Part shown: positions 19,067-20,778 of the stretch, piece after piece
Position numbering within the stretch: position 1 is the first letter of the stretch
Layout: each line of letters opens with the position of its first letter
DNA from: Escherichia coli
GTDB taxonomy: Bacteria > Pseudomonadota > Gammaproteobacteria > Enterobacterales > Enterobacteriaceae
Assembly: GCF_009931435.1 (NCBI RefSeq)
Contig: NZ_CP043414.1
Strand: one strand, 5' to 3'
DNA: 64,000 nt
The notes under the pieces: model-generated
Seen by the model: only the letters and a program-made list of their open reading frames with translations
Told to the model about the DNA's origin: nothing
The model's database searches: none
Position numbers and translations under genes: made by a program

Positions 19067-20190
19067 TGCGCCATTTACGCAATATTTTTAATCTGGGTAT
19101 CAAAGAGTTGCGCAGTCTGCTTGGTGATAAAGCGATGCTGACGCTGATTATTTTCTCGTTTACGGTGTCGGTGTATTCGTCAGCGACCGTCACGCCAGGA
19201 TCGTTGAATCTGGCACCGATCGCTATTGCCGATATGGATCAATCGCAGTTATCGAACCGGATCGTTAACAGCTTCTACCGCCCGTGGTTTTTGCCCCCGG
19301 AGATGATCACCGCCGATGAGATGGATGCTGGGCTGGACGCCGGGCGCTATACCTTCGCGATAAATATTCCGCCTAATTTTCAGCGTGATGTCCTCGCAGG
19401 ACGCCAGCCGGATATTCAGGTGAACGTCGATGCCACGCGCATGAGCCAGGCATTCACTAGCAACGGTTATATCCAGAATATTATCAACGGTGAAGTGAAC
19501 AGCTTTGTCGCGCGCTACCGTGATAACAGCGAACCGTTGGTATCGCTGGAAACCCGCATGCGCTTTAATCCGAACCTCGATCCCGCGTGGTTTGGCGGGG
19601 TGATGGCGATCATCAACAACATTACCATGCTGGCGATTGTGTTGACCGGATCGGCGCTGATCCGCGAGCGTGAACACGGCACGGTGGAACACTTACTGGT
19701 GATGCCGATAACGCCGTTTGAGATCATGATGGCGAAGGTCTGGTCGATGGGGCTGGTGGTGCTGGTGGTGTCGGGATTATCGCTGGTGCTGATGGTGAAA
19801 GGTGTACTGGGCGTACCGATTGAAGGCTCGATCCCGTTGTTTATGCTGGGCGTGGCGCTCAGTCTGTTTGCCACCACGTCAATCGGCATTTTTATGGGGA
19901 CGATAGCGCGTTCAATGCCGCAACTGGGGCTGCTGGTGATTCTGGTGCTGCTGCCGTTGCAAATGCTTTCCGGTGGCTCCACGCCGCGCGAAAGTATGCC
20001 GCAGATGGTGCAGGACATTATGCTGACCATGCCGACGACACACTTTGTCAGCCTCGCGCAGGCCATCCTCTACCGGGGTGCCGGATTCGAAATCGTCTGG
20101 CCGCAGTTCCTGACGTTGATGGCAATTGGCGGCGCGTTTTTCACCATCGCGCTGCTGCGATTCAGGAAGACGATTGGGACAATGGCGTAA
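19066..20190 (+). CDS. yhhJ: ABC-2 family transporter permease
   Basis: ORF track 18898..20190; start at the ATGATG overlapping the rbbA stop ([30 protein letters not shown]...), about 374 aa. Confidence 0.88.
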   Translation: MRHLRNIFNLGIKELRSLLGDKAMLTLIIFSFTVSVYSSATVTPGSLNLAPIAIADMDQSQLSNRIVNSFYRPWFLPPEMITADEMDAGLDAGRYTFAINIPPNFQRDVLAGRQPDIQVNVDATRMSQAFTSNGYIQNIINGEVNSFVARYRDNSEPLVSLETRMRFNPNLDPAWFGGVMAIINNITMLAIVLTGSALIREREHGTVEHLLVMPITPFEIMMAKVWSMGLVVLVVSGLSLVLMVKGVLGVPIEGSIPLFMLGVALSLFATTSIGIFMGTIARSMPQLGLLVILVLLPLQMLSGGSTPRESMPQMVQDIMLTMPTTHFVSLAQAILYRGAGFEIVWPQFLTLMAIGGAFFTIALLRFRKTIGTMA

Positions 20191-20343
20191 TTACAGTGCC
20201 CGATGCGTAAGCTTATAGGGTCTACGCATTGGTGCAATTTATTGAAATTTAGTGGTTTTTTAGGCAGGATAAAGCGTTTATGGACTGCCCCCCAAAACCT
20301 GGACAGTTTCAGTTAACCGGCTTTTTGATACTCAGTCCGGTAT

Positions 20344-20778
20344 TCAGGGCAAGATTACGAAAGCCCGCTCCCCGCAAGGACTGACGCGAGAAATGACATG
20401 AATCGCTCCCCTGCGGCGACTCTTGTCATAAGAGTGCCGGAGCGTTTTTCCATCAATTACAATGACGTCTTTATCATCTGAAGAATGGCAGTCACGCATC
20501 CAGTTAATAAAGCACTCGTGAAATTTTTCAGGACTGATACAGGATACAACTCTGGCAATGGTATCGTGAACAGGAATACCATTTTCAAAATCACCATATT
20601 GCTTCAAAAAATCGAGATGAGTTTCCCCAAAATCCTCTATATCTTCCCAATCTTCTGCACCAGAAATAACGGCACAAATAGTCAACAGTAGAATATCTGA
20701 CAATTTATGATCCACTTTCCAGGCTTGTCTGTAATCGGGGGTAATAGAAATATGTTCCATCAATTTTTTAAGTTCCAT
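20344..20778 (-). pseudogene. 3'-truncated H-repeat-associated (ISAs1-family) transposase; only about the first 130 aa retained (yhhI-like)
   Basis: [72 protein letters not shown]... matches the H-rpt N-terminus, then diverges and stops; a full-length protein of this family is around 378 aa. Confidence 0.75.

Follow-up and report, generated by a model that had tools for sequence, protein, structure and literature searches.

H-repeats are listed as insertion sequences (ISs), and their transposition has not been observed (PMC3032704). Among the closest known systems is H-rptB (yhhI), the ISEc1 copy at the RhsB locus of Escherichia coli K-12, which is a full 1291-bp element with a 378-aa open reading frame (ORF). 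In the window, the 64,000-nt stretch of E. coli DNA analysed here, the corresponding element shares with H-rptB the locus (from the Rhs tail to yhhJ), the orientation, the yhhJ-side flank and the terminal inverted repeats, with 95.5% identity over the left 531 bp (positions 1-531 of the K-12 element) and 98-100% identity over the right 47 bp, but the internal 713 bp are missing. Partial ISEc1 copies ending an Rhs element are also found at RhsC of K-12 (ybfQ, ybfL, and ybfD), where they are annotated as inactive transposases or pseudogenes, and the 380-bp left-end copy under ybfQ (L005 8303-8682) retains the N-terminal part, like the ORF of the window. The RhsC copies are terminally truncated or tandemly abutted, whereas the copy in the window is internally deleted with both ends kept. 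Pseudogenes adjacent to yhhJ in the RefSeq genomes K_EC180, CFSAN018748, and 2012C-4502 share with the window the identical junction, right end, and locus, as well as 97.6-97.7% identity over the left 531 bp, but differ in the Rhs tail, which carries Imm57/yibG modules or a second full-length ISEc1; the flanking rbbA/yhhJ of these carriers is about 4% diverged from the window. The sequence between the element and yhhJ resembles the BIME-1/RIP-type REP pairs of E. coli in its convergent REPs about 48 bp apart and its conserved central AT-rich motif.

Anatomy of the ISEc1 remnant

The ISEc1 unit, with its bounds set by comparing the yhhI copy of K-12 with the ydcC and ybfL/ybfD copies of the same strain, is 1291 bp long and ends 10 nt past the stop codon of the transposase gene. 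The remnant in the window occupies 20345-20922, which is 578 bp compared with the 1291 bp of the complete element, and consists of the two ends of the IS joined directly to each other (Table 1). The coordinates of the original prediction took in the ORF and the intergenic region and not the whole remnant, which extends to 20922, where the similarity to every other copy stops exactly. The right end aligned to positions 1245-1291 of K-12 ISEc1 with 97.9% identity and was 100% identical to S43, L006, L007, and L008. One of its frames still encodes the C-terminus of YhhI (11 residues). The gene's terminal 37 nt, comprising 11 codons plus the stop, are now out of frame, since 713 is not divisible by three. 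In the leader of the left end, the motif AAGGAG lies immediately upstream of the transposase ATG. Both CAGGG... terminal inverted repeats are present (20922-20910 and 20345-20357), and the ends match those of the yhhI and ydcC copies of K-12.

Table 1. Features of the window around the ISEc1 remnant (positions of the window)
Feature	Coordinates	Strand	Description
rbbA	16331-19066	+
yhhJ, ABC transporter permease	19066-20190	+	from the ORF list; TAA stop 20188-20190; convergent with the IS remnant
REP 1 of degenerate BIME	20198-20225	+	GCCCGATGCGTAAGCTTATAGGGTCTAC; half-consensus match 20212-20225
Central AT-rich motif between the REPs	20234-20250		GCAATTTATTGAAATTT; from the alignment of BIMEs
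REP 2, inverted relative to REP 1, truncated	20261-20280	-	TAGGCAGGATAAAGCGTTTA; half-consensus match 20260-20273 on the - strand; inner end marks the island boundary
Spacer, 64-67 bp, from truncated REP 2 to IS right end	20282-20344		confined to the Rhs/IS type of island
Residual ORF, 144 aa	20344-20778	-	129 YhhI codons + 15 frameshifted codons
ISEc1 right end, 47 bp	20345-20391	-	terminal inverted repeat CAGGGCAAGATTA + 10 nt non-coding + last 37 nt of transposase gene
Deletion junction	20392-20393		...GACGCGAGA / AATGACATG...; 713 bp of ISEc1 absent (BLAST and MAFFT against L001, L002, L003)
ISEc1 left end, 531 bp	20392-20922	-	terminal inverted repeat CAGGGAAAGATCA (20922 down to 20910) + 144-bp leader + first 387 nt of transposase gene
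Orphan modules	21211-24152	-	ybfC-like ORF; two Imm-NTF2-2 (YhhH-type) immunity ORFs; DUF6258 ORF; pentapeptide-repeat ORF
Rhs core gene	24149-28348	-

The deletion was seen as a split alignment: window 20000-20393 aligned to 3001-3393 of L001 (strain 2020CK-00188, the closest complete-genome relative of the window), and window 20392-21300 to 4154-5062. The same split was obtained against K-12 and against S43, relative to which the window lacks 713 bp. The coding sequence sums accordingly, with the 1137 nt of the gene made up of 387 nt kept, 713 nt deleted, and 37 nt kept. The junction 20392/20393 falls inside the residual ORF. BLAST of the K-12 IS plus its flanks against the whole window returned 20392-20922 and 20345-20391 only, besides weak REP hits, as the places where ISEc1 is represented. 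No direct repeat that could be a target-site duplication flanked the remnant or any compared copy; since the full-length copies are also without one, this result was uninformative.

Three other accounts of the junction were rejected. A search for a full-length transposase with frameshifts allowed, a finding that the original prediction had named as its refutation, recovered none, because 713 nt are physically absent. A microhomology-mediated deletion was rejected since the junction has a microhomology of 0-1 nt and the neighbouring GAGA repeat fails to yield the observed sequence. An assembly artefact was rejected since the same junction is present in 273 complete genomes and two draft assemblies; in these two independent NCBI drafts, the DNA of 20191-20922 is identical to the window. 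An Rfam scan of 19500-21500 gave a single sub-threshold chance hit, and a promoter and terminator scan gave the same counts as the shuffled expectation and was hence uninformative.

We consider it very probable, at roughly 93%, that 20345-20922 is a 578-bp, non-autonomous, internally deleted remnant of the 1291-bp ISEc1 (H-repeat, ISAs1 family) and a pseudogene. The remnant lies at the distal end of the Rhs element of the RhsB locus, convergent with yhhJ. A single illegitimate deletion of 713 bp in the transposase gene of an ancestral H-rptB would have taken codons 130-367 and shifted the frame, removing nearly all of the DDE catalytic domain and sparing both termini, the leader, the start codon, and the DDE_Tnp_1_assoc domain. 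The product would be unable to act as a transposase, and the gene would be a decaying pseudogene. This is an already known kind of defective IS, the allele is annotated as a pseudogene in RefSeq, and it is biologically ordinary; its significance beyond correct annotation is slight. The corrected anatomy, with an internal deletion, both IS ends, and an island edge placed in a REP, fixes the mutual borders of the mobile element, the Rhs island, and the core genome.

The residual reading frame

Residues 1-129 of the residual ORF aligned to YhhI of K-12 without a gap and were identical at 123/129 positions. Beyond residue 129 the frame switches, and 15 unrelated codons follow before a TGA that ends on the first flanking base, 20344, in agreement with the expectation of about 130 codons followed by frame divergence and a stop. 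The Pfam search matched DDE_Tnp_1_assoc (PF13808) over the full profile length at residues 8-94 (E=1.3e-33), and the ISAs1 transposase profile NF033564 of NCBIfam scored 134.9 bits, compared with a curated cut-off of 70 bits, while covering profile positions 1-102 of 314 only. Together with the YhhI alignment, these matches confirmed that the fragment belongs to an H-repeat transposase of the ISAs1 family. In YhhI, DDE_Tnp_1_assoc spans residues 8-94 and DDE_Tnp_1 residues 102-343; the residual ORF contains the entire former domain and about 28 residues of the latter. The Pfam search gave no match to the DDE catalytic domain (PF01609) in the residual ORF because the 713 nt spanning codons 130-367 are deleted. 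Without the catalytic domain, the element is therefore a remnant of an ISAs1-family member and not a functional member.

The 144-codon ORF is open, with the AAGGAG ribosome-binding site and the ATG, in 4/4 remnants examined, and a protein consisting of the N-terminal domain may therefore be expressed from it. The exact 144-aa protein is already present in public collections. Truncated transposases act as inhibitors in other elements. The remnant could by analogy be a domesticated or regulatory fragment, whose product, an N-terminal domain presumed to bind DNA, inhibits or regulates full-length ISEc1 in trans. Such a role would be consistent with the finding that all four remnants have an intact reading frame, ribosome-binding site, and full N-terminal domain, with the 144-aa database entries, and with the persistence of the allele in 5% of genomes over diverged backgrounds. 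The substitutions speak against it. Comparison of the window with the other remnants gave 0-1 synonymous and 3-5 non-synonymous changes, with a pN/pS of about 1 that is based on very few substitutions, whereas the full-length copies gave 0.08-0.20 among themselves. Three of the non-synonymous changes, I13T, E23D, and G43D (20741, 20710, 20651), lie in the conserved domain and are specific to the lineage of the window, and the NCBI pipeline calls the remnant a pseudogene. The substitutions among the remnants thus look unconstrained, which is the direction of a pseudogene. From these comparisons we consider a regulatory role very improbable, and it is likewise very improbable that the 144-aa product would be a trans-dominant inhibitor of ISEc1 transposition; if it were, the inhibitor could contribute to the failure to observe H-repeat transposition and explain the persistence of the allele in diverged lineages. 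A decaying remnant of ISEc1, which we infer to be without function, remains the preferred reading.

The intergenic region and the edge of the Rhs island

The 154 bp between yhhJ and the IS (20191-20344) are collinear with K-12 and S43, and in both of these strains the IS at this place is full-length. This stretch is therefore a native intergenic region and not a deletion scar. The comparison with the rhsB-yhhH-yhhI arrangement of K-12 and with other strains, which had been suggested at the outset, thus identified the same locus with an intact IS in these two strains. The original prediction had viewed the element as truncated at its 3' end and abutting yhhJ: a deletion or recombination would have taken two-thirds of the IS on its 3' side, as far as the yhhJ intergenic region, and the 150 bp with the REP-like palindromes (20191-20343) would be both the scar of the inactivating event and the boundary of the Rhs element. 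That the ORF stops after about 130 authentic codons, 154 bp from yhhJ, would agree with this account, but the last 47 bp of the IS, including its inverted repeat and, from the transposase gene, the last 11 codons and the stop, are kept at 20345-20391, the supposed scar is collinear with strains in which the IS is intact, and the island boundary is placed at about 20277-20281, away from the IS. The alignments accordingly refute a terminal truncation. The part of the prediction in which a deletion inactivated the mobile element stands, but the event is the internal loss of 713 bp and is not located at the yhhJ junction.

The two REP-like palindromes predicted between the ORF and yhhJ are present at about 20198-20225 and 20261-20289, the latter being the span of the second string as it was quoted. 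Each REP matched the 14-nt half-consensus used here (CTTATCMGGCCTAC) at 11/14 positions, with 3 mismatches. REP 1 contains the inverted repeat 20200-20209/20223-20232 and aligns with the three canonical BIMEs of the window and with the orthologous site of K-12. The two REPs face each other at a spacing of 48 bp, a geometry shared with the canonical pairs at 6585/6634, 49665/49715, and 55505/55555. A lone match with 3 mismatches is within chance, as 6.2 hits were expected per shuffle of the window; the pair is considered real because of its geometry and because strain MS15046 has a canonical REP pair at this position. In the central motif, many columns across the aligned BIMEs are invariant or differ in the 49641 BIME only, and this motif resembles the IHF-binding L motif of BIME-1/RIP elements, making it a putative site of that kind. 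Compared with BIME-1/RIP pairs, REP 1 of the window has its 3 mismatches and a shortened loop, and in REP 2 the island junction interrupts the repeat after about 20 nt. The K-12 annotation lists no REP at the orthologous spot.

In MS15046, which carries a different island, the BIME is complete and canonical: its REP 2 runs on canonically (..GGATAAGGCGTCACGCCGCATCCGGCG), and the homology to the window stops after about 20277. The sequence of NWU_4 is homologous to the window up to the stop codon of yhhJ. These alignments place the edge of the variable Rhs island inside REP 2, at about 20277-20281, with 64-67 bp between this edge and the IS, and not at the IS end, which had been assumed to be the boundary of the Rhs element. 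With the edge inside REP 2, half of REP 2 is island DNA, and the second palindrome therefore looks degenerate; the distal REP of the BIME at the 3' end of yhhJ was cut when an island of the Rhs type was joined to it. The spacer between this edge and the IS is present in the window, K-12, S43, L001, and L006-L008, and absent from MS15046 and NWU_4. Elsewhere in the window, canonical REP/BIME elements were observed at 6561-6671, 49641-49752, 55481-55592, 57190, and 5229, along with a cluster of five REPs at 38844-39058.

Distribution of the allele and its RhsB setting

The distribution of the allele was followed with a 40-mer centred on the deletion junction, which matches only if the junction is present. 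It was found with 100% identity in 273/5426 complete E. coli genomes (about 5%), in one copy each and always on the chromosome, and can serve as an exact 40-nt marker of the allele in population studies of E. coli. The annotated feature over the junction was "ISAs1 family transposase" in 60/60 among the matches listed, and in the three genomes inspected (3/3) the junction adjoins yhhJ and carries the annotation "incomplete; missing C-terminus". A 27-mer of the junction had no match among the GTDB genomes with one genome per species, where E. coli has one representative. Mobilisation of the 578-bp unit in trans by the full-length ISEc1 transposase, in the manner of a MITE, would be favoured by the two intact termini and by the ISEc1-related copies of which most E. 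coli genomes have several (median 5-6 places), but is the least probable of the readings considered, given a junction that occurs exactly once per genome in 273/273 carriers, with no dispersed copies bearing the same internal deletion in these carriers or among the species representatives of GTDB, and that adjoins yhhJ in 3/3 inspected, the lack of a visible target-site duplication, and H-repeat transposition that was never observed according to the literature (PMC3032704).

As for the descent of the internally deleted remnant, E83 and V107 are common to 4/4 remnants examined, while 5/5 full-length copies have A or S at position 83 and A at position 107, which argues for common descent. From the four sequenced examples and the identical 40-mer in 273 genomes, we infer that the allele probably had a single origin, after which it would have been inherited or spread through homologous recombination. 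The rbbA-yhhJ flank is about 4% diverged between the window and the other carriers, and given this divergence the allele would be either old or moved between lineages. Recombinational spread is suggested because the carriers are about 4% apart in rbbA/yhhJ and because the Rhs tail attached to the remnant varies, the point of attachment being exactly the left terminus of the IS; crossovers within the 531 bp of IS homology would produce such different tails at this position. The H-repeat copies would in this way provide portable homology where different Rhs tails get joined.

Several side observations concern the left terminus of the IS. Across strains, wholly different DNA abuts it (window 20922/20923), and 163 bp present at the IS left end in K-12 and S43 are absent from the window and L001. 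An 85-codon ORF on the minus strand (20864-21121) is a fusion artefact: it begins in an orphan fragment with HEAT-repeat/"lyase" character (yrhC-like), and its remaining 59 nt belong to the IS.

Window 20191-20839 forms a patch that is about 3.6% diverged from L001: the intergenic region has 7 mismatches and 1 gap, the right end has 2 differences, and 20459-20839 has 15. The flanks of this patch are near-identical to L001, with 1 difference in 19066-20190 and 0 in 20840-21322. This pattern indicates a recombination tract over the BIME and the IS in the lineage of either the window or L001. At the same place, L001 3345-4684 (corresponding to window 20345-20922) contains the 47-bp right end of the IS and the "AA" of the deletion junction, followed at once by a full-length ISEc1 starting from the terminal CAGGG. 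The junction between this right end and the full IS was found in 1/5426 genomes. An ancestor resembling L001, in which a full IS follows a right-end fragment of 47 bp, was rejected as the source of the window allele, since its junction occurs in one genome only and keeps the "AA" from the far side of the deletion junction; L001 therefore derives from a remnant of the window type. The arrangement in L001 looks as if the end of a full ISEc1 had been joined precisely into such a remnant and the duplicated left parts had then recombined. If so, L001 would preserve a trace of H-repeat mobility, which has reportedly never been observed.

The gene order of the window is that of the RhsB locus of K-12, namely nikR, rhsB, yhhH, yrhC, and yhhI, with yhhJ, rbbA, and yhiI on the opposite strand. 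The minus strand of the window carries the 144-codon ORF, several small orphan ORFs of the immunity type, the Rhs core gene, and the nik operon. The yhhJ gene has 99.9% identity to its annotated counterpart in L001 and 97% to that of K-12. Over rbbA and yhhJ together (16331-20190), the window shares only about 96-97% identity with K-12 and with most of the complete E. coli genomes, compared with 99.3-99.9% for strain 2020CK-00188; by this measure, the source of the window appears to be a comparatively divergent E. coli lineage. The interval from nikR to yhhJ (window 20190-28550) is occupied by an Rhs element in the window and K-12, by a PTS/aldolase sugar island in MS15046, and by a hicAB toxin-antitoxin pair in NWU_4, and on this comparison is a site of replaceable islands. 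Downstream of the Rhs core gene, the orphan modules of the window form a row, and the pentapeptide gene among them is annotated in L001 as split pseudogenes.
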